Part shown: positions 19,198 to 50,633 of the stretch, piece by piece
How positions within the stretch are numbered: position 1 is the stretch's first letter
Layout of the letters: every line of letters begins with the position of its first letter
Source of the DNA: a virus
Taxonomy: Duplodnaviria > Caudoviricetes
Strand: one strand, 5' to 3'
Length of the DNA: 64,000 nucleotides
IMG/VR virus record: IMGVR_UViG_2721755846_000003
Span: 18,856 to 82,855 of that record
Made by a program: the position numbers and the translations under genes
Notes under the pieces: generated by a model
Databases searched by the model: none
Seen by the model: only the letters and a program-made list of their open reading frames with translations
Told to the model about the DNA's origin: nothing

Positions 19198-19266
19198 TAT
19201 GCTGGGGGGCGAAGTCGCTGGTTTAGGGCCGGGCTATCTCCGAACATATGGAGAAGCCGACCCATG
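19198..19266 (+). promoter_or_regulatory. Late leader motif, locus 1 (capsid)
   Basis: TATGCT 19198-19203; GTCGCTGGTTTAGGGCCGGGC 19214-19234; GGCTATCTCC / GGAGAAGCC anti-SD stem. Confidence 0.8.
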
Positions 19267-20928
19267 GACTTCGAAATCCCCGAGGACGTCACCGCTCTCG
19301 ATGACGAGGCCCTGGCCCAGGCCCTGGATGGGGCCCGCGCCGCATTCGCCGCCCTGTCCGGGCAGGACGTCATCGACGGCGATGCCATGACCCGCATGCG
19401 CGCCCTGGCCGCCTGCGTCGAGGACATCCGCACCGAGCAGACCGCCCGTGTGGAGGCCGCCACCCAGGCCGCCGCCGAGATCGAGACCCTGGCCGCCCAG
19501 GTGCGCGGCGAGCAGGCCAACCCGCAGGTGCCCGCCGCCCCGGAGGGCCAGGAGCCCGCCGAGCCCGTCGCCGCCACGGAGCAGCCCCCCGCCGCCCCGG
19601 CCGCCCCCGTGCAGCCGGCCGGGCAGCCGGAGGCCGAGCGCACCGCGTCCGCCGTCGCCACCCGGCCCGCCCTCAACCTGCGCGCCGTCCGCCGCGCCCA
19701 GCCGCGCGTCCTGCCGGAGGCCCCGCCCCCGGGCACCACCCTCACCGCCGCCGTGGACGTCCCCGGCTACACCCCGGGCGCAGACCTCAACTTCGACGAC
19801 GTGGTCCGCGGCATCAACTCCCGCGCCACCGCCCTCAAGACGGCCGGCGGCGGCGTGGGCCAGGTCATCAGCTACCACCACCCCTACGGCAGCGACGTCA
19901 TCGTCACCGACTCCTCGTCGGCGCCCGAGGGCACCACGGTGGCCATGACCGCCTCCAGCCAGTCCCGGCTCCCCCAGCAGGACCTGGTGGCCAGCGGCGG
20001 CTGGTGCGCCCCGTCCGAGACGCTCTACGAACTCACGGACACCAGCTGCCCGGACATGCTGTGGGACGCCCCGGAAATCCAGCTCGCGCGCGGTGGCCTG
20101 CGCTACTACAAGCCGCTCAGCCTGGACGTGTCGGCGATGACCTGGGTGCACACCGAGGCGGACGACATCGCTGGCAACACCAAGCCGTGCTTCCGCATCC
20201 CCTGCCCGGACCCGGTGGAGGTGCGCTGTGACGCCGTCGGTGTCTGCCTGGAGGCGGGCATCCTGACCCAGCGTCATTTCCCGGAGCTCATCGCCTGGTA
20301 CCTGCGCAACGCCATGGTGGCGCACGAGATCCGGCTGCGTCAGGTTCTCTTCGCCAAGGCCCTGGCCACGGCCACGCCAGTGACCGTGCCTCAGTCCATG
20401 GGTGCCCTGTCCGCGGTCTTCGCCGCGGTCGCCCTGCAGAGCGCCGACATGATCGAGCGTCACAGCCTGTGCGACAGCACGGCCCTGGAGGTCGTGTTTC
20501 CGTGGTGGTCGCGGAACCTGTTCCTGGCGGACCTGGCGCGCCGTAACGGCTGCTGCCCGTCCGAGGTGTCCTCCCAGGACGTGCAGGACCTGTTCAGCCC
20601 GCTGGGCGTGCGCATCCAGTGGGCGCGCGGCCTGGCCCCGGCCGTCCCCACCGACATCGGCGCCGCCACCCCGGCCGTCGACTGGCCGGCCACGCTCAAC
20701 TTCCTGATCTACCCGGCCGGCTCTCTGGTCATCGGCCGCGGCGAGGACGTGAACCTGGGCGTGATTCACGACAGTACGAAGTTCTCCACGAACGACTACA
20801 CCGCGCTTTTCGCTGAAGAGTGCGTGGCGCTGGTGGACCGCTCCGTCGACACGCGAGTCGTGACCGTGCCCGTATGCCCCACGGGTGAGACCGGCGGCCA
20901 GACCGTCCTGGCCTGCCCGATCGCCTGA
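19264..20928 (+). CDS. Major capsid protein with N-terminal scaffold-like region
   Basis: Coiled and Pro-Ala-rich N-terminus, then LVASGGWCAPSETLY...ARGGLRY as in actinophage capsids. Confidence 0.85.
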   Translation: MDFEIPEDVTALDDEALAQALDGARAAFAALSGQDVIDGDAMTRMRALAACVEDIRTEQTARVEAATQAAAEIETLAAQVRGEQANPQVPAAPEGQEPAEPVAATEQPPAAPAAPVQPAGQPEAERTASAVATRPALNLRAVRRAQPRVLPEAPPPGTTLTAAVDVPGYTPGADLNFDDVVRGINSRATALKTAGGGVGQVISYHHPYGSDVIVTDSSSAPEGTTVAMTASSQSRLPQQDLVASGGWCAPSETLYELTDTSCPDMLWDAPEIQLARGGLRYYKPLSLDVSAMTWVHTEADDIAGNTKPCFRIPCPDPVEVRCDAVGVCLEAGILTQRHFPELIAWYLRNAMVAHEIRLRQVLFAKALATATPVTVPQSMGALSAVFAAVALQSADMIERHSLCDSTALEVVFPWWSRNLFLADLARRNGCCPSEVSSQDVQDLFSPLGVRIQWARGLAPAVPTDIGAATPAVDWPATLNFLIYPAGSLVIGRGEDVNLGVIHDSTKFSTNDYTALFAEECVALVDRSVDTRVVTVPVCPTGETGGQTVLACPIA

Positions 20929-20949
20929 CGCCCTCCGGCACCCACAGAC

Positions 20950-20994
20950 GCGCGTGCCGGGCCCGTGAACCCTGAGCACAGGCCCGGCACGCGC
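20950..20994 (+). terminator. Stem-loop after capsid gene
   Basis: GCGCGTGCCGGGCCCGTG / CACAGGCCCGGCACGCGC. Confidence 0.65.
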
Positions 20995-21020
20995 CCTCAC
21001 ACCATGACTGGAGGTGCGTG

Positions 21021-21862
21021 ATGCCTGCTGGACTGCGCCAGACCGTGCAGGGCATTTCGGGCACGCCGCTCCCGCACGGCATCCTCGGCGCCTCGTGCTC
21101 GACCGTCATCGACGTCACCGAGGACAGCATCCACGAACTCAACGGCGTGGAGTGGCTGGCCATGGGCTGCTGCCCGGCGAGGGACTGGCCGGACCCGTGC
21201 GAGGACCCCTACCCGGAGCGCCCACCGAAAAGGAGTTCTGCCGCCCCGAGACCGAGCACGCCACGCCCATCACCGTGTACGCCGGCGCGGAGTGCTCCGC
21301 CCCCGGGTTCTCCTATGAGGAGGCCCGCGCCCAGGCGCTCGCCTCCCTCGCCCTGGGGGAGCAGCACGCGGTGGAGGCCGGGTTCATGCGAACCAAGCTC
21401 ACCCAGGACGCCCTGGACATCACCCCGGCAGAGGGCCCGCTGTCCATGGCCCAGGGCGTGGCCGCGCTGGAGGGCTGCCTGGCCGAGAACTACGGCGGCG
21501 TGGGCACCCTGCACGTCCCCGCCGGCGCCGCGGCGCTGCTCGGCTGCTGCAACATCCTGCGGGAGGACCCCGCCACCGGCACCCTGCGCACCCTCGTGGG
21601 CAACTGCGCCGTCATCGGCGCCGGTTACTCCTACCTCAACCAGGGCCCGGGCAACATCCCCGCCGACCCCGGGACGGCATGGCTGTACATCACCGGGCCC
21701 CTGGTCATCCGTCGGGGCCCGATCGACGTGATCCCGGACCGCGGCCGCGCCTCCGCCTCCGTGAACATCCGCAACAACGACCGCCGCGTGCTGGCCGAGC
21801 GCACCTGGCTGGTGGGCACGACCTGCACCATTTGCGCGGTGAACGTGAGGGTCTGCGAGTGA
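21021..21862 (+). pseudogene. Putative minor capsid/structural gene split by a -1 frameshift near 21205-21230
   Basis: 5' part coding in the frame of ORF 21018 (GGAGG SD), 3' part in the frame of ORF 21014 ending in a GTGA overlap with the next gene. Confidence 0.65.
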
Positions 21863-22512: not shown

Positions 22513-22521
22513 CGGATGCGC

Positions 22522-23252: not shown

Positions 23253-25841
23253 GTGGCAGTTCAGCCTTTGCCGTGTGACGACGGCGGGACCGGCACACCA
23301 GGCGCCTGCTCCTGCTCGCCGTCCATCGCCTCCGCCCCGCTGTGTCGGGCGGACGGCACCACCGTGCTCCTGGTCCTGCGCTCCGGCTGCGTGGCGTGCG
23401 GCCAGGCGGCCACGGATCCGGCCGTCGTCGGCTGGATCGACCCGCTCACCGGGGTGCTCACCCCGGGCGCGGCCCCGCCGGACGCCGGCCCCTGCTCCAT
23501 GGGCTGCTCCTGCTCGCCGTCCATCGCCACCACACCCCTGTGCCGGGCAGACGGCACCACCGTGCTCCTGGTGGTGCGCAACGACTGCGCGGACTGCGAC
23601 ACCCCCGCCCCCGACCCCACGGTGGTGGGCTGGCTGGACCCGCTCACCGGCGTGTTCACCCCGGGCGCTGCGCCGGCCGACGCCGGGCCGTGTGACCCGG
23701 GCTGTGTGGACACCGTCTGTCGGCAGCTCTGCGACGACACCGATGGCGACGGCCAAGCGGACGCCACCTATTCGGAGCTGTGGTGCATCAAGGCGGACGG
23801 CTCCGCCTCCCTCGTCCTCACCTACCAGGACGACCCCTCACAGCCGTACACGCCCGTGGCACCGGTCGACTGCACGTATGGCTGCCCCGAGACCGAGACC
23901 GTCACCCTGTGCGATGCCTCCGGTCCGTTCCTGCGCCGCTTCACCTGGCTCGCCGGGGTGGGCACGTACGAGGACGTCGCCCTGGACGGCCAGACACCGT
24001 ACGTCGTCAACGGCACCGTTGGGGTGTGCGCCGGCGACGGCGGCACCCCGGGCACGCCGTGCGCCGAGCAGACCACGCCGGCCGCCACGCTCGGCCTGTG
24101 CCTGGCGGACGGCACACCGATCGCGGTCATCCTCACCCGCGACTGCGACGGCACGGTCACCCAGGACGGATGGCTCAACCTCACCACCGGCACCTACAGC
24201 ACTGGCGCGCCCCCGGCCGGGGCCGCCGCGTGTGGGGACTCCCGCGCCTTCGAGCTGGCCGGGCTGCTGTGCGACGTCGACCCGGCAACCGGCGACGTCC
24301 TCGGCCTGGTCCTCGTCGAGTACGAGTACAACCCGGACGGCAGCCTCGCCCACGTGCGGCTCGTGGACCCCGGCACCGGCACCACGTACACCCTGCAAGG
24401 GGAGCTGCGCTACTGCCCGGCCGGGACCGCCGCGGCGGCCGCCGACCTGGACCTCACCGTGCTGTGCGACGTCCAGGCAGACGGCACCGCCGTGCCGTTC
24501 GTGCGGGACTACCGGCGCGACCCCACCACCGGCCAGATCAACGGGCACACGGACTACGGCCTGGACGGCACGCCGTACACCCCGACCGGCACCGCTGGCG
24601 TCTGCTCCCCGCAGGCGGAGCCGTGCCGCAACGCCAGCACGCTCCTGCTGTGCGACCTGCCCACCGACGGGACACCGGCCCCAACCGTCACGGACACCCC
24701 CGGCGGGCCGTACTACCCGTACACCACAGGGGTGGCCACCCCGGGGGCGCAAGCCCTATGGGACGGCGGCCCGCTGAACCTCCCGGCCGCGGCAGGCCCG
24801 CAGCCAGGCACGGGGGGCACCGTACGGACCGCTGCGGCGGTCATCCAGGCCCCGCGGCCCGCCTGTGACGCCGGTACCGCGCACGTCACGGTGCAGGTCG
24901 ACGTCACCCAGCTTGGCCCCGACGCCGGATGCCGAGCCACCGGGTTCCTCGGCCTATACAACGGCCCCGGCGACGCCAACCGGGTAGCTCTCGCACTCGC
25001 CCCACCCGACACCCCCGTCGGGTGGGCCGGAACGCTGACCGCCGAGGCCGACGTCCCGGCCGCCGACCTCGCCGCCGGGAACATCGTCGTCGTGGTCGCG
25101 TTCGACGCCTACGACGACAGCGGCGCCACCTGCCCACCCCCGCGCCACACGGCCTGGCAGCTGTCCCAGTTCGACGCCACGGTGGTCTACGACCAGACCG
25201 GATGCGCGCCGCAGTTCCTCCGCAGCATCACCACCGACTGCGAGACCGGCGCTGTCACCGCCGTCACCGACACCACGCTGGACGGGCAGCCGTACACGGT
25301 CACCGGGCAGCCCGGCCAGTGCACAGCAGCCGGGGGCGGTTCCTGCTGCCCCGAGCAGCCGTGCCCGGCGCAGACCGTCATCGAGGCATGCCGCTGCGAC
25401 GACACCGACGCGGACGGCCTGCCCGACGTCGGCTATGTGGAGCTGCTCGCCGTCGACTGCTCCGGGGCCGTCACCAGCCTGGGCACCTACACGGACGGGC
25501 TCACCGGCCCGTACACGCCCGTCTCGCCGGTGGACTGCAACGCCCTGGGCGACGAGGAGGGCGCAGAGCCAACTTTCGGCGCGCAGGCCCACCGGGTGGA
25601 GCTCGCCGGCGCTGCCTCCTGGAGCGCCGCGGCGTGGCCGACCCTCCAGTCAGTGACCGCCGTCGCCCACGGCGGCACCGGCACTATCACCACCGCTGAC
25701 GGCCCCTCAACCCTGCACCAGGGCGAGGCCGCCACCTGGAGCATCGCGCGGGACGAGGATGCCCGCCTCACCGGACCGCTCACCATCGCGGCGAGCACCG
25801 GCACCGTGACCGTCACCTTCACCACCGGAGTGCAACTGTGA
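23253..25841 (+). CDS. Large Cys-rich repeat protein, putative virion decoration
   Basis: Two tandem ~66 aa CSCSPSIA..LCRADGT repeats, LCDV modules, CDDTDGDG motifs. Confidence 0.78.
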   Translation: MAVQPLPCDDGGTGTPGACSCSPSIASAPLCRADGTTVLLVLRSGCVACGQAATDPAVVGWIDPLTGVLTPGAAPPDAGPCSMGCSCSPSIATTPLCRADGTTVLLVVRNDCADCDTPAPDPTVVGWLDPLTGVFTPGAAPADAGPCDPGCVDTVCRQLCDDTDGDGQADATYSELWCIKADGSASLVLTYQDDPSQPYTPVAPVDCTYGCPETETVTLCDASGPFLRRFTWLAGVGTYEDVALDGQTPYVVNGTVGVCAGDGGTPGTPCAEQTTPAATLGLCLADGTPIAVILTRDCDGTVTQDGWLNLTTGTYSTGAPPAGAAACGDSRAFELAGLLCDVDPATGDVLGLVLVEYEYNPDGSLAHVRLVDPGTGTTYTLQGELRYCPAGTAAAAADLDLTVLCDVQADGTAVPFVRDYRRDPTTGQINGHTDYGLDGTPYTPTGTAGVCSPQAEPCRNASTLLLCDLPTDGTPAPTVTDTPGGPYYPYTTGVATPGAQALWDGGPLNLPAAAGPQPGTGGTVRTAAAVIQAPRPACDAGTAHVTVQVDVTQLGPDAGCRATGFLGLYNGPGDANRVALALAPPDTPVGWAGTLTAEADVPAADLAAGNIVVVVAFDAYDDSGATCPPPRHTAWQLSQFDATVVYDQTGCAPQFLRSITTDCETGAVTAVTDTTLDGQPYTVTGQPGQCTAAGGGSCCPEQPCPAQTVIEACRCDDTDADGLPDVGYVELLAVDCSGAVTSLGTYTDGLTGPYTPVSPVDCNALGDEEGAEPTFGAQAHRVELAGAASWSAAAWPTLQSVTAVAHGGTGTITTADGPSTLHQGEAATWSIARDEDARLTGPLTIAASTGTVTVTFTTGVQL

Positions 25842-28800
25842 GTGGATGCTGCGGGCAGGGGCCCGTCATCGTCAGCCAGGCCGCGGCAGCGACCGCCCGC
25901 GTGGACGTGGAGCCGCTGCTCCTGTGTGACGTGCTCCCGGACGGCACGATCGCCGGCCTCGCACAGGTGGAGTCCGTCTACCACGCGAGCACCGGCGCCC
26001 GGCTGACCACGCGCATCGTCAACCCCACCACCGGGGCGACCTACACCCCCACCGGTACGCTCGGCCTGTGCTCGCCGCCGGCCAACGAGTGCGCCCGGCA
26101 GATCACCCAGGTGACCCGCTGCGACGACACCACCGGCGACGGCATCGGCGACACCGAGTATGTCGAGGTGTGGTCGCTGGACCCGTGCGACGGTGGCGCG
26201 CCCCAACTGGTGGGTACGTACCTCGCCGGGGACTTCACGAGCCCCTACACGCCGACCGCGCCCGCCGACTGCCCGACCCAGACGCCGGACACCCCGGTCG
26301 TCCTGGGCACCGTCTGCTACGACGACGGCGCTGGCGGCACCGGCACGGCGGCCGTCCTCAAGTGCGCCGCCTGCGGGGACCCGGCCGTCACGTACCTCGA
26401 TCTCGCCACCGGCGCCGTGCTGACCGCGCCGGCCATCGTGCCGTGCCCGGCCGCCGCGGACCGGACGACGCAACTCCTGTGCGACGTCCAGGCCGACGGC
26501 ACCTCCTCCCCGTTCCTGCGCGCGTTCACCACCGACGACACCGGCACCACCACGGCGGACACGCTCCTCGACGGCACCACGGCCTACACACCGACCGGCA
26601 CCGTCGGCGTCTGCCTGCCGGTCACCGACTGCGCCTCACCGACCACCCCGACCGCCACCATCGGCCTGTGCCTGCCGGACGGGACACCGATCGCCGTCAC
26701 CGTCGTCCGCGACTGCGACGGCGTGGTCACCTCCGAGGGATGGATCAACCTCCAGACCGGCGCCTACAGCGCGGGCGCGCCGCCGGTCGGCACTGTCGCC
26801 TGCGGCAGCTCCCAGAGCGTTCAGGTCTCGGGAACGTTCTGCGACGTCCTGGCGGACGGCACGGTCGCCGGTCTGGTGCTGATCGAGTACAGCTACGCCG
26901 CGGACGGCACGATCGACAGCGTCCGCCTGGTCGACGCCACCACCGGCGCCACCTACACCCCGACCGGCACCGTCACCACCTGCCCGGCCGGCGTCGAGCA
27001 GCCGGAACAGGACGTCGTCCAGCTCTGCGACACGGCCGCCGACGGCACCGTCACCCCGATGGTCCGCGACTACCGGCGGGACGAGACGGGCGCCATCGTC
27101 GGGCACTCCGACTACCTCCTGGACGGCTCCCCCCACACGCCGACCGGCACCGTGGGGGACTGCCAGCCCGACCCACAGCCGGAGCGAGACCTGGCCGTCC
27201 TATGCGACGTCCAGGCGAACGGCAGCGTGATCACGTTCCTGCGCGACTACGCCCGGGATGCGGCCGGAACCGTCACCGGCCACGCGGACTATGCCCTCAA
27301 CGGCTCTGCCCCGTACGCCCCGACCGGCACCGTGGGCGTCTGCCAGCCGTCGCCCTGCAAGGACTGCGAAACGCTGGTGCTGTGCGACGTGCCCACTGGC
27401 GCGCCGGTCACGATCACCGGGACCGCAACGTCCGGCACCCTGTCCAACGGCGTCGGCTGGACGGCGACGGACGCGGGCAACGGTACGGCGATGCCGGTCA
27501 ACCAGAGCAACGCTGACGGCTCCTGGTGGGGGCTGCACTCCTTCCCCCACGCCGTCACCGCGGCGACCCGGTGGACGTTCTCCCGGCCCTCCATCGTGGA
27601 GTTCTCGGTCTACGTCCACTACTACGCGGGGAGCCCAGGCATCAGTTGGGCGCAGCTCCCCACCGGGCTGGAAGTCGTTTACCTGCCGGACGGCTACTCC
27701 TACAACTCGGCAACCGGGGTCCTGACCCGCACCGCCGATGGCGTACCGCCCGACCCCTGCTCGTATGTGACCACTCCGCAGGTCGCGGGGAGCGCCCGGT
27801 TCCGTACCTCTGGCGCCGTCACCTCCGTCACCACCGCACCGGCACCGAACAGCCGCGCGGCGGTGTGCGGCACGTTCCTCACCTACTGGGCCGGTGCCGT
27901 GTCGGTGCTCCCGGCCGGCCCGTTCCTGCGGCACATCTGCCGCTCCTGCGACGGCACCCCCACCATCACGGACACCCTCCTCGACGGCACCACCCCCTAC
28001 ACCGTGGCCGGGACCGCCGGGGTGTGCGAGCCGCCCGAGCCGCCCGAGCCGGAGTCCTGCTGCCAGCCGGCCCAGGTCTGCATCCAGCAGGACCCCACCC
28101 AGGAAGTCGAGTTCATCTCCAACGAGGCCCACCTCAACGACAACTCGGTGGACCCCGTATGGAAGTGGACGCCGGACATCAACGCGGCCAACCCGCCCTG
28201 GTACGACATGTACGAGTTCCAGTACTCGGGCGCCTGGTCGGTCACCGACTCCGACAGCGCACGCCCGGCCTGGTGGGTCTCCCCGCATCCGAACGGCGCC
28301 TCCGCGCAGTCGAGCCCGGCACAGCCGAACGAGGGCCCGTCGCTCCTCAGCACCCACTGGTTCCCGCGCGCCTACTTCGACCTGCCGGCCAACGCCGACC
28401 CCGCCACCATCCAGCTCCAGGCCACAGTGTTCAACGCCGACCAGATCGGCCGCGCGTTCCGGCTGAACAACGGTGCCTGGCAGAGCCTCCCGCCCACGGC
28501 CACGCACAACGGGACGACGTACACCTTCGGCCCCGCCACCATCCCGGGCGCGCAGGCCGGCCGGAACTTCCTCTACCTCGACGTCGAGGAAACCGTCGGC
28601 GGCGGATCCGGCCTGATGGTGCACCTGAAGGTCACCTATGAGGTCATCCCCGAGACTCGCTCCTGGACGCGGATGGTCTGCTGCGACGACACGATCTACT
28701 ACCTGGACGAGGACGGGCAGCGCCAGGACGCCATCCCGGACGGCTGGCACCTGGCGCCCTGCGGCGGAGACGCAGGCAGCAGCACGCCCGCCTGCGCCAA

Positions 28801-29263
28801 GCAGGTGGTGGAGCGCTGCGGCTGCGACGACACCGACGGCGACGGCATCGGTGACGTCCAGTACACCGAGCTGTGGGCCGTCGACCCCTGCAACGGCGCC
28901 GCCCCGACCCTGCTGGGCGCCTTCCTCGACGGCGACCTCACCCAGCCGTACACGCCGACCGCGCCGGTCGACTGCACCGCGGCGGAGCTGCTCCCGGGGC
29001 CGCTGAGCACCGGCGTACGGGCCGTGACCGGAACCGCGGCGCAAAACATCGCGAGCAGCTTCCCCGGCGTCCAGAGCGTCAGCCTCACCGTGCTCGCCGG
29101 CGCGGTCAACGCCACCATGTCGGACGGCGCGGCGGTGCCGATCCCGGCCGGGGTCACGATGACGTGGTCCGTCGCCCAGGACAGCGACACCGCCCTCGCC
29201 GTGGCCTCCTTCGCCGGGGCGACCGCGGCAGCGAGCTACCTCCTGAACTGGACGTACCGCTGA
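25838..29263 (+). CDS. Large Cys-rich repeat protein (1141 aa), paralogous modules to 23253
   Basis: Repeated LCDVxADGT..RDY..LDG..YTPTGTVGVC; CDDTxGDGIGD; Trp-rich beta domain near the C-terminus. Confidence 0.82.
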   Translation: MSGCCGQGPVIVSQAAAATARVDVEPLLLCDVLPDGTIAGLAQVESVYHASTGARLTTRIVNPTTGATYTPTGTLGLCSPPANECARQITQVTRCDDTTGDGIGDTEYVEVWSLDPCDGGAPQLVGTYLAGDFTSPYTPTAPADCPTQTPDTPVVLGTVCYDDGAGGTGTAAVLKCAACGDPAVTYLDLATGAVLTAPAIVPCPAAADRTTQLLCDVQADGTSSPFLRAFTTDDTGTTTADTLLDGTTAYTPTGTVGVCLPVTDCASPTTPTATIGLCLPDGTPIAVTVVRDCDGVVTSEGWINLQTGAYSAGAPPVGTVACGSSQSVQVSGTFCDVLADGTVAGLVLIEYSYAADGTIDSVRLVDATTGATYTPTGTVTTCPAGVEQPEQDVVQLCDTAADGTVTPMVRDYRRDETGAIVGHSDYLLDGSPHTPTGTVGDCQPDPQPERDLAVLCDVQANGSVITFLRDYARDAAGTVTGHADYALNGSAPYAPTGTVGVCQPSPCKDCETLVLCDVPTGAPVTITGTATSGTLSNGVGWTATDAGNGTAMPVNQSNADGSWWGLHSFPHAVTAATRWTFSRPSIVEFSVYVHYYAGSPGISWAQLPTGLEVVYLPDGYSYNSATGVLTRTADGVPPDPCSYVTTPQVAGSARFRTSGAVTSVTTAPAPNSRAAVCGTFLTYWAGAVSVLPAGPFLRHICRSCDGTPTITDTLLDGTTPYTVAGTAGVCEPPEPPEPESCCQPAQVCIQQDPTQEVEFISNEAHLNDNSVDPVWKWTPDINAANPPWYDMYEFQYSGAWSVTDSDSARPAWWVSPHPNGASAQSSPAQPNEGPSLLSTHWFPRAYFDLPANADPATIQLQATVFNADQIGRAFRLNNGAWQSLPPTATHNGTTYTFGPATIPGAQAGRNFLYLDVEETVGGGSGLMVHLKVTYEVIPETRSWTRMVCCDDTIYYLDEDGQRQDAIPDGWHLAPCGGDAGSSTPACAKQVVERCGCDDTDGDGIGDVQYTELWAVDPCNGAAPTLLGAFLDGDLTQPYTPTAPVDCTAAELLPGPLSTGVRAVTGTAAQNIASSFPGVQSVSLTVLAGAVNATMSDGAAVPIPAGVTMTWSVAQDSDTALAVASFAGATAAASYLLNWTYR

Positions 29264-32603: not shown

Positions 32604-32675
32604 TAGACTCACCTGGAACGCCGCTGGTTTAGGGCCGGGCGCCTCCTCCACCCCTTCACGAGGAGCACCCCCATG
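32604..32675 (+). promoter_or_regulatory. Late leader motif, locus 2
   Basis: TAGACT 32604-32609; GCCGCTGGTTTAGGGCCGGGC 32620-32640; CTCCTC / GAGGAG anti-SD. Confidence 0.8.
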
Positions 32676-34820: not shown

Positions 34821-34905
34821 TAAACTGAACTCGCCGCTGGCTTCGGGCCGGGCAACATGTCGCTGGTTGAGGGCCGGGCTTCCTGCACGTAGGAGGCACG
34901 GCATG
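34821..34905 (+). promoter_or_regulatory. Late leader motif, locus 3 (two tandem copies; major tail)
   Basis: TAAACT 34821-34826; copies 34833-34853 and 34859-34879; GCCGGGCTTCCT / AGGAGGCACGGC anti-SD. Confidence 0.8.
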
Positions 34906-38999: not shown

Positions 39000-39101
39000 G
39001 GTGCCACGCGCAAATGGAACCCGTAGGCGCGAAGCTCGCCGTCGACGCGAGTTCGGACCCTGCAAGTGTTCTCCCTCAACCCGGTTGCCATGCAGTCCGG
39101 C

Positions 39102-39168
39102 TACCCTGATCTGCACGCCGACTGGTTGAGGGCCGGGCGAGGCGCGGGAGACGAGGACACACCCCGTG
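39102..39168 (+). promoter_or_regulatory. Late leader motif, locus 4 (tail chaperone)
   Basis: TACCCT 39102-39107; GCCGACTGGTTGAGGGCCGGGC 39117-39138; no clear anti-SD stem here. Confidence 0.75.
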
Positions 39169-39696
39169 GCAACCAAGACTTTTTCCTTCAACACCGACCC
39201 CCACGTCGCCACCGTCAACGGCATGGACCTCCGCTTCCAAGCGGAGGTCATGGGCGATGAGTTCATGGACGCGTTCGGGGAGCTGCGCGACGCGCAGAAG
39301 GCGGCCCAGGGCATCGACCTGGAAGACCTGTCCACCCTGGACCCGGCTGCACTGCGCGGCGCGGCCCGGGGCCTGCGTGGCTTCCTGGCGCGGCTGATGC
39401 TCGCGGAGGACGCGGAGCGGTTCACGGCCCTGGACGTGGTCACCAAGGAGGGCCAGGTGCTCAGCACCCACCAGGACTGGGACGAGGCGCAGCAGGCCGC
39501 GGATCAGGTGGACGGGGCCCGGGCGAAGTGGGCGATGCCCATGCCGGACCGCATCCTGGTGGCCCTCATGGAGTGGGTGACCGAGCTGTACGGCGGTGGC
39601 GCAGACGCTCGCCCTACTGGGTCGTCTTCCGCCTCTGCGAGAGCATTGCCGCGGGGTGGGAAGGGTGGAGCGGCGCGCTCGCGCTCGAAGGCGTAG
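39166..39696 (+). CDS. Tail assembly chaperone (gpG-like)
   Basis: Upstream of tape measure; EWVTELYGG...RPT ending. Confidence 0.75.
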   Translation: MATKTFSFNTDPHVATVNGMDLRFQAEVMGDEFMDAFGELRDAQKAAQGIDLEDLSTLDPAALRGAARGLRGFLARLMLAEDAERFTALDVVTKEGQVLSTHQDWDEAQQAADQVDGARAKWAMPMPDRILVALMEWVTELYGGGADARPTGSSSASARALPRGGKGGAARSRSKA

Positions 39697-39944
39697 ACGT
39701 CCACGCGTGGCGGCTGCGCACCATGCTCGCCGCCGCCGAGGCGTCCATGGATGCAGCCGCGCAGGATGACGGGGAGCGCGCCCGCAACCGGGCCAAGTTG
39801 TACGCCCCGCCCACGAGCGCGCAGGGCCCTCGCCGTCCAGGAGCACGGCCCGCCGGCCGGGGGATGAGCCTGGACCAGGCGCAGGCGCTCATGGCCGCCG
39901 TAGCCACCGAAGACGCCCAGGTCACCGGTGGCCGTAACGGATAG
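39612..39944 (+). CDS. Tail assembly chaperone frameshift extension (gpT-like)
   Basis: Overlapping -1 frame PYWVVFRLCESIAAGW... entered at C-CCT-AC (39612-39617). Confidence 0.62.
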   Translation, partial: PYWVVFRLCESIAAGWEGWSGALALEGVDVHAWRLRTMLAAAEASMDAAAQDDGERARNRAKLYAPPTSAQGPRRPGARPAGRGMSLDQAQALMAAVATEDAQVTGGRNG

Positions 39945-40033
39945 TCTGGGACCAGGCCGGGCCGCGCGCCCTGGCCTCTCGCCGACTGGTTAAGGGCCGG
40001 GCAACCACTCACGAATCGTGGGGTTGCCCGGTG
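39942..40033 (+). promoter_or_regulatory. Late leader motif, locus 5 (tape measure)
   Basis: TAGTCT 39942-39947; GCCGACTGGTTAAGGGCCGGGC 39981-40002; CGGGCAACC / GGTTGCCCG stem ends at GTG 40031. Confidence 0.78.
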
Positions 40034-43000: not shown

Positions 43001-44848
43001 CGGGTGGGCTCCGCTCTGGCGTCGCTCGGCTCCTCCCTGCTGCGGAACTTCACCAGCGCGTTCAACTCCGCGCGGTCCGGGATCACCGGGTTCATCTCCT
43101 CGGCGGCGTCGTTCTTCCGCGGCCTGCCCGGCAAGATCGCCTCTGCGCTGTCCTCCCTGCCGGGCAAGATCGCAGGTGCGTTCACCAGCGCGGCCGGTAA
43201 GGCCCGGTCGGCTGTCTCGTCGCTGATCTCCGGTGTGGTCTCGCTGTTCTCGGGGCTGCCCGGCAAGATCCTCAGCGCCATCGGCAACATCGGCGGCCAG
43301 ATCATGGCCAAGGTCAAGTCCGGTATCCCGTCCAGCGTCCGCAAGTACCTGCCCTTCGCCAAGGGCGGCGTGGTCTACGGCCCGACGCACGCCCTGATCG
43401 GTGAGGCCGGGCCCGAGGTCGTCATCCCCCTGACCGACCCCCGGCGGGCCGCTCAACTCGCCCATCAGTCAGGCCTGCTCGGCATCCTGGCCAGCCAGAC
43501 TCGCGGCCTGGCCGCAGCGGCGGCCGCGACGACGAGCAGCAGCGGCGCCCAAGTGGGCGGAGCCGTGTCCACGCTGCGCTCCCTGCTCGCGGGCATCGGC
43601 AGCCTGCTGGACAACGTGGGCGCCAACGTCGTGCAGGGCATGGTCGACGGCATCCGCAACAACGCCGGCCTGGTCGCCGGCGCCGCCGCCGAGATGGCCG
43701 ACACCGCGGCGGTCGCGGCCCGGAACACCCTGGAGATCCACAGCCCCAGCAAGGTGTTCGCCAAGATCGGCCGGGACGTGGGCCGCGGTTTCGTGGCCGG
43801 CCTGACCGGCACCGCCTCCCAGATCAAGAGCACAACGGAGAAGCTGGTCCGTGACATCCAGAACGCTTTCTCCGGGAAGAAGACCCGGCTGGATGACCGC
43901 CTGGTGGCGATGCTCGACGCCGGGAACAAGCGCCTCACCACGCTGGCCGCCCAGCGCGATGCCCTGGCCAAGCGGATCGCGGACGCGCAGAAGTTCGCCG
44001 CGGACACCACCAGCCAGGCGTTGCAGGCGTTCTCCCTCCAGAACCTGTCCCAGGGCCTGGCGGACGGCCAGGCGCTCACGGCCAAGACCCTGACGGCCAA
44101 CCTCCAGGGCGCTGTGGACCAGGTGAAGCGGTTCTCTTCCCAGCTCAACAACCTGGCCCGCCGGGGGCTGCGTAAGGACCTGCTCCAGCAGCTCGTGGGC
44201 CTGGGCCCCCAGCAGGGCGCGGAGCTCGCCACCGCCCTGGCCTCCGCCACCAAGGACCAGTTGAAGCGGCTCAACAGTGTCCAGGCGGAGCTGACCAAGG
44301 CATCCGGCACCCTCGGCAACACCTCCGCCGACGTCCTGTTCGACGCCGGGAAGCAGGCCGGTAAGGGGTTCCTCACCGGGTTGCAGGGCCAGCGCAAGAG
44401 CATCGAAAAGTTGATGCTCGACATCGCCAAGGGGATGCAGAGCGCCATCCGTACGGCGCTCAAGATCCACAGTCCCTCGCTTGTGATGCGGCGCCTCGGC
44501 GAGTACACGGGCGCCGGCCTGGAGCTCGGTCTGGTGCAGCGCATGGCCGGGATCATGCGCGCGTCCACGGCGGCGGCCCGCTCCATGGTGGACGCGGTCG
44601 CCGGACAGTTCGGCCTGCTGCCCGGGCGGGTCTCCTCCTCGCTCGGCGCGGTGGGCGACCTGGGCGCGGGCGTGGTGCCACTGACCCGGGCGCAGCGCGC
44701 CCGCCAGGCCGGGGCGTCCGGAGGCGGCCAGACCGCGGCCGGGACCGTGATCAATAACCACTTCGAGATTCGAGAGGTGGGCGACGGGCACGTGACCGCG
44801 CAGCGCGTCGTCAACCGGCTGGTGTACGCGGCGGGAGTGAGCGGCTGA
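40031..44848 (+). CDS. Tape measure protein
   Basis: 1605 aa Ala/Gly/Leu-rich; FFxGLPGKI repeats; FAKGG...IGEAGPEVVIPL; IHSPS twice; N-terminal ~24 aa PDxxRFQAQ repeats. Confidence 0.93.
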   Translation: MAGEEDDYGSARITIDLDDTAAVADAQTLGQRIQNALDRATRNIGQQIRRNIQRGLTTAISVRVEPDVSRFEAQVQRALRGLAAAVDLTPDAARLQARLQRTLRGLSASVDISPDLGRFQARLTAGLRGLGSVSVPVAPDVARFQAQVQRALRRLSVSVALEPDTARFQAQVNRALRGMTAQVRVEPDAGRFAAQLRRDLRALGAVTVQAQADAARFRAQLERALRRLPPITIRVDPDLTRLNAALRTYHAPPVRIPIDVDRDQLTRTLSGLAGLAGRVGGVLVKALKFGAVAIAAAGAAAGVAKFVAALAPAAGLLAAVPAGVLGFQAALGALKLALSGVSDAFKSALTDDSKKFEKSLKGLSPKAQAAAREVRALKPAFEDLRNSVQDAFFTKIEGQITSTAKALAGPLKTGLTGISTAWGAAARGALGYVQGSKGVANVKSILGGAQAATEGLSQTTNRLTAGLLQVAAVVSDRFGAELSGGIANLGQRIGDFLQRIASGGQAVAWVDGALNTLARLGDIAGNVKDIFSGLFQASDGAGAGVLNNLQTVTKAVSDLVNSAQGQTALGNIFTQVGQVAQQLGPIISAVLSNVGKIAPALGPILTGLGPVIVQLVNQLGSAVQGALPQLSVVFADLGAAVVSLAPALPPLAEAAAALARSAADLLVPLAPIVALLAQLVGPVVSVAAPLIVAGTAAFVLVKAFKAAVEVIRLIQGAWLALNVAFAASPIGAIIVGVIALVAAIYLLYQRFAIVRTVVDAVGRALRDGFLAAVSFVKSAASAIADFFVGAFESAKSAVSTGIDAVVGFFTGLPGKIVSGLSALGSTLAQFFVSAFETVKAGVLAGVQAVVGFFVALPGRIVAGLQALPGLLLGAFTSAVAYLIIGLLTVVAGIVFLFTELPVRIYNALVSLGQFLLTAFVTGFTVATATVSGWIDATAAFFQALPGRIYSALAALGSFLLNAFVSGFNSVTSTVSGWISSTVSFFQALPGRVGSALASLGSSLLRNFTSAFNSARSGITGFISSAASFFRGLPGKIASALSSLPGKIAGAFTSAAGKARSAVSSLISGVVSLFSGLPGKILSAIGNIGGQIMAKVKSGIPSSVRKYLPFAKGGVVYGPTHALIGEAGPEVVIPLTDPRRAAQLAHQSGLLGILASQTRGLAAAAAATTSSSGAQVGGAVSTLRSLLAGIGSLLDNVGANVVQGMVDGIRNNAGLVAGAAAEMADTAAVAARNTLEIHSPSKVFAKIGRDVGRGFVAGLTGTASQIKSTTEKLVRDIQNAFSGKKTRLDDRLVAMLDAGNKRLTTLAAQRDALAKRIADAQKFAADTTSQALQAFSLQNLSQGLADGQALTAKTLTANLQGAVDQVKRFSSQLNNLARRGLRKDLLQQLVGLGPQQGAELATALASATKDQLKRLNSVQAELTKASGTLGNTSADVLFDAGKQAGKGFLTGLQGQRKSIEKLMLDIAKGMQSAIRTALKIHSPSLVMRRLGEYTGAGLELGLVQRMAGIMRASTAAARSMVDAVAGQFGLLPGRVSSSLGAVGDLGAGVVPLTRAQRARQAGASGGGQTAAGTVINNHFEIREVGDGHVTAQRVVNRLVYAAGVSG

Positions 44849-48279: not shown

Positions 48280-48346
48280 TACCCTGCCGATCAGTCGCTG
48301 GTTTAGGGCCGGACACGCACCGCACGGCAGGGGTGAGTTCGGCATG
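48280..48346 (+). promoter_or_regulatory. Late leader motif, locus 6
   Basis: TACCCT 48280-48285; GTCGCTGGTTTAGGGCCGGAC 48294-48314; GCCGGAC..CACC / GGTG.GTTCGGC anti-SD. Confidence 0.8.
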
Positions 48347-49066: not shown

Positions 49067-49070
49067 CCCC

Positions 49071-49210: not shown

Positions 49211-49215
49211 GCCGA

Positions 49216-49284
49216 TAGACTCGACGGTGCGCCGCTGGTTTAGGTCCGGGCCACGATCAACCCCCAAGGACGGTGGGATCAGTG
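49216..49284 (+). promoter_or_regulatory. Late leader motif, locus 7
   Basis: TAGACT 49216-49221; GCCGCTGGTTTAGGTCCGGGC 49231-49251; GCCACGATC / GATCAGTGGC stem covers GTG 49282. Confidence 0.78.
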
Positions 49285-50118
49285 GCGAGGTGCGGATGCG
49301 CCGGAGGCGCGTGCAACTGCGCGGTGGAGTCCGGGACCAACGTCAGCGTCAGCGGCTCCGGATCGGCGGCCAACCCGTACGTCATCAGCGCGGCGACTCC
49401 ATGCGCGGACGTGAGGGCGTGTCTGTCCGCCGGGCCCGGCATCAACCTGGACCAGGCCACCGGCGCAATTTCCGCGGACCTGTCCGGGCAGGCAGGCAAC
49501 AACGTGACGATCGGGCCGGACGGCGGCCTGTACGTGCCCACAGCCGGCGGCGCGGTGCTCACGGGCTGCGGCCTGGTCGGCAACGGCACCGCGAGCGCCC
49601 CCGTCAAGGCAAAGACCGGGACGTGGCCGTACCCGTGCAGCCTCGACACGTTCGGCGGAGTGGTGGCGTGCGACAGCAACGGCGTCCTGCGGGGCGAGCC
49701 GCGCGGCAGGCTCTCGTTCGCGTCCTACTTCGACAACCGGGACTATCCCGACGTGCCGGTCCCGGCCGCCCAGAACACGGTGCTGGACAACTTCACGGTC
49801 AACGTGACCAACCCCGACACGTGCCGCACCGCCATGGTGCTGACGGAGCGGGAGGTGGACGTGTATGTCGTGCTGCCGGCCGGGGCCGCCGCGGGCACCG
49901 GGCACAGCAATGACGAGATGTACTACATGCGCAACAGCGGCACGAGCACCATCGTTGGCACGCACGTCCAGACCACCAAGTTCCTGGCGGAGCCGGCCCT
50001 GCTCGCCCCCGGCGCGACGATGCCGGTGACGCTGACCGCGACCGGTGGCCGCGGCGCGGGCGGCGCCTACTACTACGGCATCAACTTTGTCCTCCGGACC
50101 ATGATCATCAGCCTGTGA
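49282..50118 (+). CDS. Short tail-fibre-like protein, paralog of 32673
   Basis: CNC..V.GSGSAANPYVISA, CADVRAC, GCGL.GNGT shared with 32673; different C-terminus. Confidence 0.75.
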   Translation: MARCGCAGGACNCAVESGTNVSVSGSGSAANPYVISAATPCADVRACLSAGPGINLDQATGAISADLSGQAGNNVTIGPDGGLYVPTAGGAVLTGCGLVGNGTASAPVKAKTGTWPYPCSLDTFGGVVACDSNGVLRGEPRGRLSFASYFDNRDYPDVPVPAAQNTVLDNFTVNVTNPDTCRTAMVLTEREVDVYVVLPAGAAAGTGHSNDEMYYMRNSGTSTIVGTHVQTTKFLAEPALLAPGATMPVTLTATGGRGAGGAYYYGINFVLRTMIISL

Positions 50119-50129
50119 GGAGTGCGACT

Positions 50130-50519
50130 ATGTCCCTGGGACTTCCCGGTCTGCCCGGCTGGCCGTGGCCGTGGCCTGACGGCGACGACCCGACGACGCC
50201 GCCCGAGCCGACGACGCATTACGTCCTGTACCCGGACGGCCACATCGGCCAGATCACCGCCACCGGCGCGGATCCCGTACTCACCGAGGGCGCCAAGCTG
50301 CTGACGCAAGAGCAGTACGAGGAGACGCGCGCCCAGATGCTGGAGGCGCATGAGGCGCGCCTGACGGAGCTCCAGGCCGGGGAGGAAGCGGCACGCCTCC
50401 AGCAGTACAAGGACCTGCGGGCGGTGGGCCTGCCGGAGGCGACCGCGCGGTCCTTGTCCGGCTACACCGGCCAGGCCGCGGCCGGCGACGCCCAGGGCGC
50501 CGCGCAGACGGCCGGTTAG
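50130..50519 (+). CDS. Fibre chaperone-like hypothetical protein
   Basis: GAGGAG SD; follows fibre gene; LLTQEQY...GLPEATARSLSGY. Confidence 0.68.
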   Translation: MSLGLPGLPGWPWPWPDGDDPTTPPEPTTHYVLYPDGHIGQITATGADPVLTEGAKLLTQEQYEETRAQMLEAHEARLTELQAGEEAARLQQYKDLRAVGLPEATARSLSGYTGQAAAGDAQGAAQTAG

Positions 50520-50633
50520 ACTCCTAAGCAGTCGCTGGTTCAGGGCCGGACGAGGCGCCCCGCTACGGGAGTGATCCGCCTTGTCCCACGACCACCGCAC
50601 CAGCAACGTGCCCGGCCGGGACGGCTGCTGATG
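50517..50633 (+). promoter_or_regulatory. Late leader motif, locus 8 (endolysin), with candidate uORF
   Basis: TAGACT 50517-50522; GTCGCTGGTTCAGGGCCGGAC 50531-50551; GGACGAGGCG / CGCCTTGTCC stem. Confidence 0.8.

Follow-up and report, generated by a model that had tools for sequence, protein, structure and literature searches.

A temperate, TurkishDelight-like Streptomyces phage carries before its virion and lysis genes a recurrent signal that is a sense-strand RNA hairpin (hereafter H1), because its stem covaries and G·U-type combinations outnumber A·C-type ones (approximately 52 versus 1 in 274 related copies, the set used for the conservation counts and taken from among the matches listed). 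The RNA signal proposed earlier, as opposed to a DNA palindrome, is thus supported. Our preferred, though tentative, reading is that −10-only late promoters give rise to leaders with a translational switch, formed by H1 and a second hairpin (H2) and read by a putative factor.

Twelve matches to CTGGTTNAGGGCCGG with at most two mismatches were found in the window (the whole stretch of DNA analysed, 64,000 nucleotides), versus 1.18 expected; the shuffled window gave a standard deviation of 1.15 and a maximum of 5, and twelve matches were reached in 0/100 shuffles. Nine of them are intergenic copies of the element on the + strand, with the C of CTGG at 19218, 32624, 34837, 34863, 39122, 39986, 48298, 49235 and 50535, and the consensus of this 21-base signal is GYCG(A)CTGGTTNAGGGCCGGRC; the nine copies ahead of virion and lysis genes reported in an earlier note, made from the letters alone, are therefore confirmed. 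The three other matches (4971, − strand; 19666, − strand; 40393, + strand, within the tape-measure gene) have two mismatches each and look like chance. The two on the − strand, both inside coding DNA, are the only reverse-strand matches, a chance-level result that lends no support to the antisense RNA also suggested in that note. No additional copy is present in the first 18.8 kb of the 82,855-base record. For the downstream genes, PHROGs gives matches to a major head, a major tail, a tape measure, a tail-fibre-like protein and an endolysin, and phrog_12617 for the gene at the tail-chaperone position, the genes at 32673 and 49282 having no match in PHROGs.

Table 1. Leader features of the window (positions count from its first letter)
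Feature	Position	Strand	Remarks
-10-like box, capsid leader	19198..19203	+	TATGCT; TAnnnT at -24..-16 in 219/274 related copies
H1 copy 1, major capsid gene 19264-20928	19214..19234	+	R1, E 3e-05
H2, capsid	19232..19258	+	GGCU(A)UCUCC x GGAGAAGCC; buries capsid gene SD
-10-like box	32604..32609	+	TAGACT
H1 copy 2, 636-aa gene 32673-34583	32620..32640	+	E 1.3e-06; gene without family match
H2 at copy 2	32641..32666	+	CCUCCUC x GAGGAG (= SD)
-10-like box, ahead of tandem H1 pair	34821..34826	+	TAAACT
H1 copy 3, upstream member of tandem pair	34833..34853	+	E 3.1e-05; T4 -> C makes a C-G pair; loop UCG
H1 copy 4, major tail gene 34903-35580	34859..34879	+	R2, E 8e-05
H2, major tail	34873..34902	+	GCUUCCU x AGGAGGC (= SD)
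-10-like box	39102..39107	+	TACCCT
H1 copy 5, gene 39166-39696 (tail-chaperone position)	39117..39138	+	E 0.006; one additional bulge base (GCCGACTGG)
Box, 34 nt upstream of tape-measure motif (H1 copy 6)	39942..39947	+	TAGTCT; GC-rich inverted repeat between box and H1; layout shared with TurkishDelight
H1 copy 6, tape-measure gene 40031-44848	39981..40002	+	E 0.0007; one additional bulge base
H2, tape measure	39996..40032	+	CCGGGCAACC x GGUUGCCCGG; extends to GUG start
-10-like box	48280..48285	+	TACCCT
H1 copy 7, tail-fibre-like gene, start 48344	48294..48314	+	E 6.7e-06
H2, tail-fibre-like gene	48308..48343	+	
-10-like box	49216..49221	+	TAGACT
H1 copy 8, gene start ~49282	49231..49251	+	E 1.6e-05; G10 -> U; gene without family match
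H2 at copy 8	49250..49286	+	extends to GUG start
-10-like box	50517..50522	+	TAGACT; TAG = stop codon of upstream gene 50130-50519
H1 copy 9, endolysin	50531..50551	+	E 0.0001; start codon uncertain (50571 or 50631)

With base numbering starting from the C of CTGG (position 0), H1 comprises an outer stem of 3 bp (-4:16, -3:15 and -2:14), a C0:G13 pair flanked by the bulged bases G-1 and U1, a G·U-rich inner stem (G2:C12, G3:C11, U4·G10 and U5·G9) and a loop of 3 nt (N-W-G). The hairpin drawn earlier holds for its inner pairs but is not supported at its outermost one, C0-G14, since G14 covaries with position -2 and C0 pairs with G13. H1 is recovered by RNAalifold from 36 capsid leaders. In 65 distinct sequences, pairing reaches 94.8% of cells versus 89.6% when shuffled, and the covariation score is 0.300 versus 0.186 (0/500 shuffles equal in both cases), the shuffle controls not being probabilities because the sequences share kinship, and alignment A5 being fitted to the structure and biased in its favour; slid controls gave 21-58% pairing. 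The combinations observed in these 65 sequences are GC 32, AU 16 and GU 11 at -4:16; CG 53 and UA 6 at -3:15; CG 40, UG 15 and UA 6 at -2:14; and CG 63 and AU 2 at 0:13. Among the 274 copies, A15 co-occurs with U-3 in 12/12 cases and A14 with U-2 in 11/11.

The motif could alternatively be a DNA site, namely a stoperator-type operator as in mycobacteriophage L5 and Streptomyces phage R4, where a repressor bound at numerous oriented intergenic sites halts polymerase, a late-activator site or a contiguous phage-polymerase promoter. Its multiple copies are oriented, asymmetric and intergenic, adjoin promoter-like boxes and belong to a temperate phage, almost every base is invariant in the related copies, and stoperators are reported, in the available parts of the respective papers, in relatives of Streptomyces phage R4 (PMC10276819) and in cluster A mycobacteriophages (PMC9283540). 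We nevertheless hold a DNA site to be quite improbable: pairing persists via G·U intermediates on just one of the two strands, for which double-stranded DNA offers no reason, bulge length is variable, the element is limited in the window phage to virion and lysis genes instead of being spread across early and late operons, and scans for a phage RNA polymerase or sigma family gave nothing except one marginal Sigma70_r4 match (E 0.0085). In addition, a hairpin of 21 nt is longer than a transcription bubble's non-template strand allows.

Alternatively, the 3' strand of H1 (G13-C16), together with the 8-10 bases that follow, can pair with the Shine-Dalgarno sequence (SD) and the bases after it, forming the longer hairpin H2, in which the ribosome-binding site is buried. 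H1 and H2 are mutually exclusive, and covariation is present in both. In 121 distinct leaders (model R2), H2 pairing amounts to 73.5% versus 66.6% of cells and covariation to 0.245 versus 0.163 (0/500 for each, again not a probability given the kinship of the sequences), the fixed-register model leaving 26.5% of cells unpaired; positions 13-16 pair downstream, with double changes that include AU 8 and UA 11. The region folds at -18.9 kcal/mol, versus -16.5 kcal/mol with a shuffled 3' part (lower in 72%, Wilcoxon p 4e-18) and -16.4 kcal/mol with 3' parts exchanged among leaders (p 5e-13), and 173/249 leaders have an SD-like tetramer base-paired in their MFE fold. H1 alone is worth about -5 kcal/mol and enforcing it costs a median of 11.3 kcal/mol, a gap inflated by predicted pairing with coding sequence. 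With H1 closed, an anti-SD:SD hairpin of 5-6 bp is still possible, and release of the SD is thus only partial. H2 is weak or absent at two of the eight window loci (39122 and 50535).

The placement of the signal in the late-gene leader, downstream of a -10-like box and upstream of the ribosome-binding site, is borne out. As had been claimed, a TAnnnT box lies 6-10 nt upstream of the 21-22-nt motif at seven of the eight loci, the tape-measure locus being the eighth, and a common -35 is lacking, since none of the positions upstream of the box shows conservation among the 274 related copies. A canonical two-hexamer promoter was not found at the sites. A TAnnCT box is located 6-14 nt upstream of H1 in 80% of copies, with a 9-nt range of box-to-H1 spacing in the related copies. 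The start codon follows the end of H1 by about 28 nt, at a nearly fixed distance: in the H1 numbering it falls at +38 to +51 (median +44, interquartile range 42-46) in 184 of the 193 copies that could be scored.

Processive antitermination, in which H1 would be a polymerase-modifying signal allowing polymerase from the late promoters to resist late-region terminators, would suit a promoter-proximal sense-strand hairpin whose sequence is conserved and whose loop differs between lineages, present in numerous copies, each directly after a -10-like box, and relatives have terminator-like hairpins behind some late genes. Comparable leader elements are known: boxB of lambda nut is read by an N-like protein, the put RNA of HK022 is factor-free and LoaP uses a leader hairpin. 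However, antitermination does not predict that the H1-to-start distance should be much tighter than the box-to-H1 distance, nor that H1 should overlap an SD-sequestering helix; H2 has no U-tract and the start codon comes directly after it; no conserved boxA-like block is present beside H1; a promoter ahead of nearly every gene group would leave little read-through to be required; and no N-like or NusG-like family appeared in scans, which small basic proteins would escape. Because H1 overlaps a second hairpin sequestering the SD, the evidence points to translation control more than to antitermination, which we judge unlikely.

The boxes could also be cut sites for a host endonuclease of the RNase E type in long late transcripts, H1 then being a 5'-terminal protective hairpin. 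Cutting would take place in UAnnCU, the only A/U-containing single-stranded patch, and would leave mRNAs beginning with H1 at 0-8 nt from the new 5' end; the sites have no canonical two-hexamer promoter, and several boxes lie inside or just behind the upstream coding sequence with no intervening terminator (50517; 32604, which begins 7 nt after the upstream stop codon). Emory, Bouvet and Belasco reportedly described in 1992 a geometry in which hairpins close to the 5' end protect mRNAs. This explanation is likewise improbable: protection requires structure alone, yet the sequence, bulges and loop of H1 are nearly invariant; the fixed start-codon distance and the competition between H1 and H2 are left unexplained; TAnnnT without a -35 is the usual actinobacterial promoter signature; and in Woodruffvirus a similar box also lies about 30 nt ahead of further late genes, which lack the hairpin.

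Scans for the exact 19-mer pattern gave at least 119 viral stretches and at least 120 genome stretches, and TurkishDelight has 10 copies of the element, at matching genes. Among the matches listed, at least 97 locus-strands of related prophage or phage stretches carry two or more copies, and in 213 of 257 related copies the next gene is homologous to one of the window's tail, fibre, tape-measure or lysin genes; the capsid leader bears the element or a variant at 52 distinct related loci. Tandem H1 copies precede major tail, tape-measure and some capsid genes, and tape-measure copies retain the H1 stem despite one additional bulge base. The loop varies by phage lineage, related copies mostly having T instead of A at loop position 7, and the loop base N6 varies freely inside one genome, with constant neighbouring bases. 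A diverged form is present ahead of the capsid, major-tail and tape-measure genes of Woodruffvirus phages, which the available part of PMC11536984 describes as virulent, and this also tells against a DNA site. Woodruffvirus genomes arrange the cassettes headed by a box and H1 (tape measure; major tail plus adaptor; capsid) in different orders, as could result from recombination at repeats that have no regulatory role, being linkers kept by cassette recombination or merely inherited. That the repeats lack a role is nonetheless very improbable, since the free N6 between fixed neighbours speaks against homogenisation by conversion, two helices are maintained by compensatory changes, and the element keeps a constant distance from the SD and start codon. 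In comparisons proposed earlier, the frequency of the element elsewhere in Streptomyces chromosomes is about the control level, ordinary Streptomyces DNA not carrying the motif at the frequency seen here, and no Rfam family reaches threshold. No description of it was found in the literature searched.

Several known systems share part of this architecture. In Mu mom, a small activator hairpin lies directly 5' of a translation-inhibiting stem, with which it interacts and which sequesters the ribosome-binding site, and binding of Com is thought to open that stem; the leaders described here also have a small hairpin adjoining a stem in which a late gene's ribosome-binding site is buried. Mu mom differs in having a single site, on a single gene, and a known zinc-finger protein, whereas the present element has 9-10 sites per genome, at virion and lysis genes, scans gave no Com-like family, and binding is putative. 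RAT is a conserved but imperfect, weak leader hairpin, read by BglG/SacY/LicT, which overlaps a stronger downstream terminator hairpin; similarly, H1 overlaps the base of the 5' arm of H2 by a few bases in a mutually exclusive manner, but H2 holds the SD and lacks a U-tract, and is therefore a sequestrator and not a terminator, the two elements are unrelated in sequence, and scans gave no CAT/PRD protein. As in lambda nut (boxB) and HK022 put, the signal is a promoter-proximal RNA hairpin in a phage leader with a lineage-dependent loop; unlike lambda nut, it has no boxA-like block, many sites instead of two, a coupling to the start codon and no identified N-like protein. The SAS/ESAS of cluster K mycobacteriophages are, like the element, conserved oriented repeats ahead of a gene subset in actinophages, and their function is, to our knowledge, still without explanation; the 13-base SAS block takes in the ribosome-binding site and lies 3-8 bases from the start codon, whereas H1 is a hairpin that ends about 28 nt upstream and excludes the SD. 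The stoperators of L5 and R4 are also many oriented, asymmetric, intergenic copies in actinophages (available parts of PMC9283540 and PMC10276819), but they are genome-wide double-stranded DNA sites of immunity repressors, unlike an element with RNA-type covariation that is restricted to late genes and occurs in virulent phages too.

In the preferred reading, that of −10-only late promoters with H1/H2 switch leaders, the TAnnCT box without a -35 would act as the promoter, transcripts would start 0-8 nt upstream of H1, and each copy would encode the 21-nt H1 at the 5' end of a late mRNA or very close to it. H1 would be the first to fold on the nascent RNA, and equilibrium would favour H2 by roughly 11 kcal/mol (the inflated gap given above), holding translation low. 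As the element is confined to phages, the factor may be encoded by the phage itself. Pfam and PHROGs scans of about 95 of the approximately 100 predicted proteins of the record gave no RNA-binding family (KH, S1, cold-shock, Com, CAT/PRD), and no regulator gene common to the window phage and Woodruffvirus was found; a common phage-coded reader is not evident because only virion and lysis genes are shared. The putative factor would recognise the invariant H1 bases and keep H1 closed, which would shorten H2 by 4-6 bp and turn on translation of the virion and lysis mRNAs together, and it would probably also protect the mRNA 5' ends. The element thus looks like an undescribed switch of late gene expression.

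Twelve matches to CTGGTTNAGGGCCGG (at most two mismatches) are found in the window, whereas dinucleotide-preserving shuffles (n = 100) give 1.18 on average (sd 1.15, maximum 5), none reaching twelve. Nine of them are the plus-strand copies listed by the earlier note, which are borne out against this chance expectation; the other three, with two mismatches each and lying inside coding DNA, look like chance matches. All nine stand between genes called by third-position GC content, as had been claimed, and the TAnnnT box described 6-10 nt ahead of the 21-22-nt motif is indeed present at seven of the eight loci, the tape-measure locus having a TAGTCT box 34 nt upstream of the motif. The copies of this 21-nt hairpin (H1; positions are numbered from the C, 0, of CTGG) are confined to window 19214-50551, before virion and lysis genes; the other ~51 kb of the record contain none, nor was an extra copy found in the first 18.8 kb of the 82,855-base record, of which the window is the last 64 kb. 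The PHROGs-assigned genes that follow them encode the major head protein, the major tail protein, phrog_12617 (in the tail-chaperone position), the tape measure, a tail-fibre-like protein and the endolysin, while two downstream genes, one of 636 residues, have no assignment. The most abundant virion proteins have tandem copies ahead of their genes. With a covariance model of H1 (R1), eight of the window copies are retrieved (E <= 0.006) and no additional one; the ninth, which overlaps its tandem neighbour by one base, is missed.

Folding of 36 capsid leaders with RNAalifold yielded the H1 hairpin with a previously unexpected outer stem. Pairs were counted in 65 distinct sequences, namely the capsid leaders, all copies of the window and of the related phage TurkishDelight, and five Woodruffvirus copies. 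Paired cells amount to 94.8% against 89.6% in column shuffles and the covariation score to 0.300 against 0.186 (0/500 shuffles reaching the observed value in each case; these controls ignore sequence relatedness, and the counts are not probabilities), and slid partners pair in 21-58%. By position, (i) pair -4:16 is GC in 32 sequences, AU in 16 and GU in 11, (ii) pair -3:15 is CG in 53, UA in 6 and AU in 2, (iii) pair -2:14 is CG in 40, UG in 15 and UA in 6, (iv) pair 0:13 is CG in 63 and AU in 2, both AU cases being in unrelated contigs, and (v) pairs 4:10 and 5:9 are U·G, with C-G in some lineages. The C0-G14 register drawn earlier is not supported by this covariation; C0:G13 fits, and slightly better than U1·G13. 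The tape-measure copies retain the outer stem with one additional bulge base. Since pair -3:15 shows both states among the window's own paralogous copies, the changes are not one inherited event. A purely recombinational role of the repeats, which is contradicted by the compensatory changes and by the free base N6, is highly improbable.

In a wider set of 274 distinct copies (at most one core mismatch), A15 is accompanied by U-3 in 12/12 cases and A14 by U-2 in 11/11, and G·U-type combinations outnumber A·C-type ones 52 to 1; selection therefore acts on the sense strand, that is, on RNA, and the earlier view of an RNA element rather than a DNA palindrome is upheld by this ratio and by the covariation. 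An operator of the stoperator kind, as known in L5 (extract of PMC9283540) and reported for R4 relatives (extract of PMC10276819), would suit the oriented multi-copy layout. However, a stoperator is a double-stranded site that needs no strand-specific pairing, whereas H1 covaries with sense-strand G·U; the bulge is variable; the L5/R4 sites serve early and late operons, whereas H1 precedes virion and lysis genes only; and the element is carried by Woodruffvirus phages, which are virulent and have no lysogeny genes according to an extract of PMC11536984. The R4 sites are set apart from H1 by layout and covariation rather than by direct comparison of the sequences, and a DNA operator appears distinctly improbable.

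The last four bases of H1 and those following it can pair with the Shine-Dalgarno (SD) region and the bases beyond it, giving a second hairpin (H2) whose arms differ by phage (GGATCTCC/GGAGATCC, GTCTCC/GGAGAC, CCGGGCACTC/GAGTGCCCGG). Over 274 leaders the region folds at -18.9 kcal/mol; dinucleotide shuffling of its 3' part gives -16.5 (72% of leaders are lower than the shuffle; Wilcoxon p 4e-18) and an exchange of 3' parts among leaders -16.4 (p 5e-13). An SD-like tetramer is paired in 173/249 minimum free energy folds. In a fixed 8-bp register, 73.5% of the H2 cells pair against 66.6% in shuffles and covariation is 0.245 against 0.163 (0/500 each; slid controls 39-59%), in an alignment (model R2) of 124 leaders, 121 of them distinct, which is biased in favour of the structure to which it was fitted. 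The downstream partners of H1 positions 13 to 16 are, in order, GC 78; GC 76; GC 58, GU 14 and AU 8; CG 61 and UA 11. As these bases covary with two partners, H1 and the base of H2 are mutually exclusive. H1 alone has a computed energy of about -5 kcal/mol, and 70-nt leaders lose a median of 11.3 kcal/mol in stability when it is enforced (more than 5 kcal/mol in 88% of leaders); with H1 closed, a short anti-SD:SD hairpin is predicted to form still, which is a weak point of the switch reading. Of the eight window loci, six have a clear H2 and two (39122 and 50535) a weak one. In 184/193 scorable copies the start codon is at +38 to +51 (median +44, interquartile range 42-46). Two alternative helices are thus under selection at a fixed distance from the start codon.

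Actinobacterial promoters are typically marked by a -10 hexamer lacking a -35. In 219/274 copies a TAnnnT hexamer (TAnnCT in almost all cases) begins 16-24 nt upstream of the CTGG C, with modes at -19 and -16 and almost none at other positions. Nothing is conserved beyond this box in the 274 copies, in agreement with the earlier remark that a shared -35 is missing, and a two-hexamer promoter scan returned no match at H1 sites. From the position of the box, transcription would start 6-7 nt past it, which would place the motif 0-8 nt from the 5' end; a 5'-terminal stabiliser is a hairpin within ~4 nt of the mRNA 5' end. The spacing of H1 to the start codon is much tighter than that of the box to H1. 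An inverted repeat flanking the box was rejected as a general feature (mean best stem 4.66 bp versus 4.30 bp in shuffles, 219 copies), although it is striking in some copies (window 19218; capsid and major tail of TP1604). Alternatively, H1 could be a 5' protector that remains after long transcripts are processed at the box; this seems improbable and would not account for the invariance of the sequence.

The nearest GenBank phage is the temperate Streptomyces phage TurkishDelight; its capsid is 78% identical to that of the window in amino acids, and parts of the virion region align at ~75% nucleotide identity. Each of its ten H1 copies, at matching genes, is preceded by a GGCTAnnCT-like box and has T at loop position 7, where the window has A. 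The exact 19-base pattern occurs in at least 119 IMG/VR contig stretches and at least 120 genome contig stretches, the genomes listed including many Streptomyces together with Nonomuraea, Embleya, Kitasatospora and Micromonospora; single matches in unrelated phyla look like chance. Among the matches listed, 97 locus-strands carry at least two copies. The logo of the 274 copies is GCCGCTGGTTNTGGGCCGGGC, invariant save N6 and position 7 (T 87%, A 9%, C 3%), variation at -2, -1, 15 and 16 being underestimated because the set was partly retrieved by a pattern that fixes them. Where enough downstream sequence was available, the gene following 213/257 related-locus copies is homologous to a tail, fibre, tape-measure, minor-tail or lysin gene of the window. 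The loop allele was rejected as proof of a phage-specific reader, since it is not strictly genome-specific: one lone A copy is present in many T-type stretches, and two contigs (L267 and L274) have A in the capsid copy and T in the rest. Mimicry of an anticodon arm as TGT substrate (UGU in a 7-nt loop), considered because the phage has a DpdA-like gene, was likewise discarded, N6 being G in only 46% of copies and position 7 being A in the window.

The capsids of Woodruffvirus phages (virulent, cluster BG-like) are 55-58% identical to that of the window. The exact motif was not found in these phages; a diverged element keeps the CTGG-N5-GGCCGGG spacing with CGNTA replacing TTNWG, and stands only before the capsid, major tail and, as a further variant, tape-measure genes, the other late genes having a plain TAAGCTGG or TAGACTGG box ~30 nt ahead of the start codon. 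Further loop variants (TGCTA, CCGCG, CCAGG) occur among 71 capsid-anchored loci. Some Woodruffvirus copies (GGCGGTAG) resemble the RfaH ops element; as this concerns some variants only and a hairpin of this length would not fit into a transcription bubble, the likeness was treated as coincidence. Complementarity to the 16S 530 region was set aside because it suits only GCUGCUGG variants and not the majority GCCGCUGG. Two loci with capsids of ~30% identity (L315 and L317) carry another kind of tandem repeat ahead of the capsid gene, GACGGGCTGG(A/G)GCCG, in which the conserved H1 halves GCTGG and GGCCG are joined directly, the 5-nt loop segment being absent. The order of virion cassettes varies between the Woodruffvirus phages TP1604, Mischief19, phiSAJS1 and Xkcd426, the neighbour of the terminase being the tape measure in three of the four genomes and the major tail with an adaptor in phiSAJS1, and each relocated cassette starts with a box and an H1-like element. 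Recombination could take place at the repeats, or they could merely give the cassettes autonomy, and the presence of H1 at the start of each virion cassette may explain the permuted order.

In five whole Streptomyces genomes, clusters of one-strand matches within ~14-25 kb are present in two, and matches outside clusters number 0-3 per 7-11 Mb, similar to a reversed-pattern control. Of 150 further randomly sampled species genomes, three have clusters (7, 4 and 8 copies) and 34 have one or two single matches, against ~36 matches in 32 genomes for the control; the sample includes one unpublished genome (G135), which adds one single match only. With isolated matches at the control rate, the motif is not ordinary Streptomyces DNA. 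Use of the element by the host was rejected, three strong isolated R1 matches in one genome (G152) being remnants of tape-measure, major-tail and fibre-like leaders. The element is restricted to late genes of one phage lineage.

The earlier note had not recognised the motif as a described element. No Rfam 15 family has a match anywhere in the window at gathering thresholds; permissive Rfam scans of two leaders gave miRNA/snoRNA noise only (E 0.4-9), and literature searches by phage name, motif fragments and descriptive terms returned no description of the element and no mention of TurkishDelight. We rate the element as a cis-regulatory leader RNA switch, unusual in that one genome can have it on as many as ten late mRNAs and in being present in temperate and virulent actinophages. 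The nearest systems in logic are the Com/mom switch of Mu and the RAT/terminator switches; the element belongs to neither and is unrelated to both in sequence. As in Com/mom, H1 lies directly 5' of an SD-sequestering H2; the two share bases 13-16 and both covary, but Pfam scans detected no Com-like zinc-finger family; an unrelated activator would still be compatible. Unlike RAT/BglG elements, H2 has no T run and is followed by a start codon within a few bases, a terminator scan finds none at the sites, and no CAT/PRD antiterminator family is present among the Pfam-scanned proteins. An antitermination signal of the nut or put type, for which a promoter-proximal hairpin would be suitable, leaves the start-codon coupling and the overlap with the SD-sequestering helix unexplained and does not agree with an H2 without U-tract; in contrast to lambda nut, there is no boxA-like block, and nothing is conserved outside -5 to +16 except the TAnnCT box at variable distance and the SD. 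This reading is unlikely. T7-type promoters differ in that no RNA polymerase family is found by PHROGs or Pfam, the two large genes being members of phrog_18824, a family with no assigned function. The start-associated sequence of cluster K phages is a block 3-8 bases ahead of the start codon that includes the SD, whereas H1 ends a median of 28 nt before the start codon, with the SD outside.

Returning to the RNA switch, the most likely mechanism, though at somewhat less than even odds, is that the box would be a late promoter with a -10 only, and in the nascent RNA H1 would fold first, at the 5' end. H2 would then replace it and keep the ribosome-binding site buried, unless a factor reading the invariant bulges, G·U pairs and loop held H1 closed; H2 would in that case be shorter by 4-6 bp and translation would rise, and the same factor could perhaps also be a 5'-end protector. 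Our tentative reading, possible rather than probable, is that H1 is the operator of a genome-wide post-transcriptional late regulon, in which one protein, phage-coded or a virion protein as its own sensor, would bind this weak hairpin on up to ten mRNAs and free their ribosome-binding sites by out-competing H2, so that late timing and stoichiometry would be set at translation and not at transcription. Pfam and PHROGs scans of ~95 of the ~100 predicted proteins revealed no RNA-binding family, small basic proteins having no usable model. The window phage and Woodruffvirus have only virion and lysis genes in common. The product of window 5480-5929 (phrog_645, 'Rnase E'; 'HTH' gp1 in TurkishDelight) was dismissed as regulator, its position and sequence resembling a small terminase subunit.

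The record has several other features (table below). A gene set for 7-deazaguanine synthesis and insertion (window 2141-5432) suggests that the phage may modify its own DNA. Upstream of the window, at bases ~8300-13900 of the phage's own record (L246), a second repeated cassette precedes at least four early-region genes and consists of a TTGACA -35, then TTGCAATG..GAGTTGCAA and finally the conserved block GTCAGGACGGGCG.GGGGCCCGG; very different from the late boxes, it has the appearance of a canonical early promoter combined with an operator. Several early genes are followed by nearly the same terminator-like hairpin (GGGCCGGGCGCACCCGATAKGCGCCCGGCCC; ~10980-14450 of the same record). The phrog_18824 pair is also present in Mischief19 and Xkcd426.

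Features of the window other than the H1 copies
Feature	Window position	Remark
DpdA/queuine tRNA-ribosyltransferase-like gene	2141-3073	
QueD/PTPS gene	3576-4028	
Radical-SAM QueE-like gene	4025-4756	
GTP cyclohydrolase I gene	4761-5432	
HNH endonuclease-like gene	6087-6848	Ahead of terminase
Phage's own terminase gene	6790-8457	
HNH endonuclease-like gene	18575-19168	Immediately ahead of capsid leader
phrog_18824 paralogue	23364-25841	825 aa; between capsid and tail genes
phrog_18824 paralogue	25838-29263	1141 aa; adjacent to the preceding
Lower-G+C stretch (0.66)	38287-39166	878 nt; between head-tail genes and chaperone leader
Sigma-70-like promoter match	38337-38365	In lower-G+C stretch
ORF	38439-38999	In lower-G+C stretch; no PHROGs match
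Right end	~58900-64000	Resembles host DNA or a second element; Pfam matches include NAD-dependent glycerol-3-phosphate dehydrogenase, HD domain, radical SAM, HATPase_c_2 kinase-like, GNAT
ORF	61160-62326	73% identical to part of TurkishDelight terminase

To our knowledge, very little has been learned about how phages of Streptomyces and other actinobacteria control their late genes, and the element offers a short, defined and testable handle on this. Capsid, tail and lysis leaders bear it in 97 or more related stretches of phage or prophage DNA, and it can serve as a tag by which this prophage family and its remnants are recognised. Two exclusive helices, each with covariation, are the signature of an RNA switch; identification of its trigger would uncover a new regulator and would also provide a compact expression part for high-GC actinomycetes, the main antibiotic producers. 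If the regulon reading is true, the element would represent a new class of riboregulator, with Com-like logic but multiple targets, common to the TurkishDelight-like temperate and the Woodruffvirus virulent phages.
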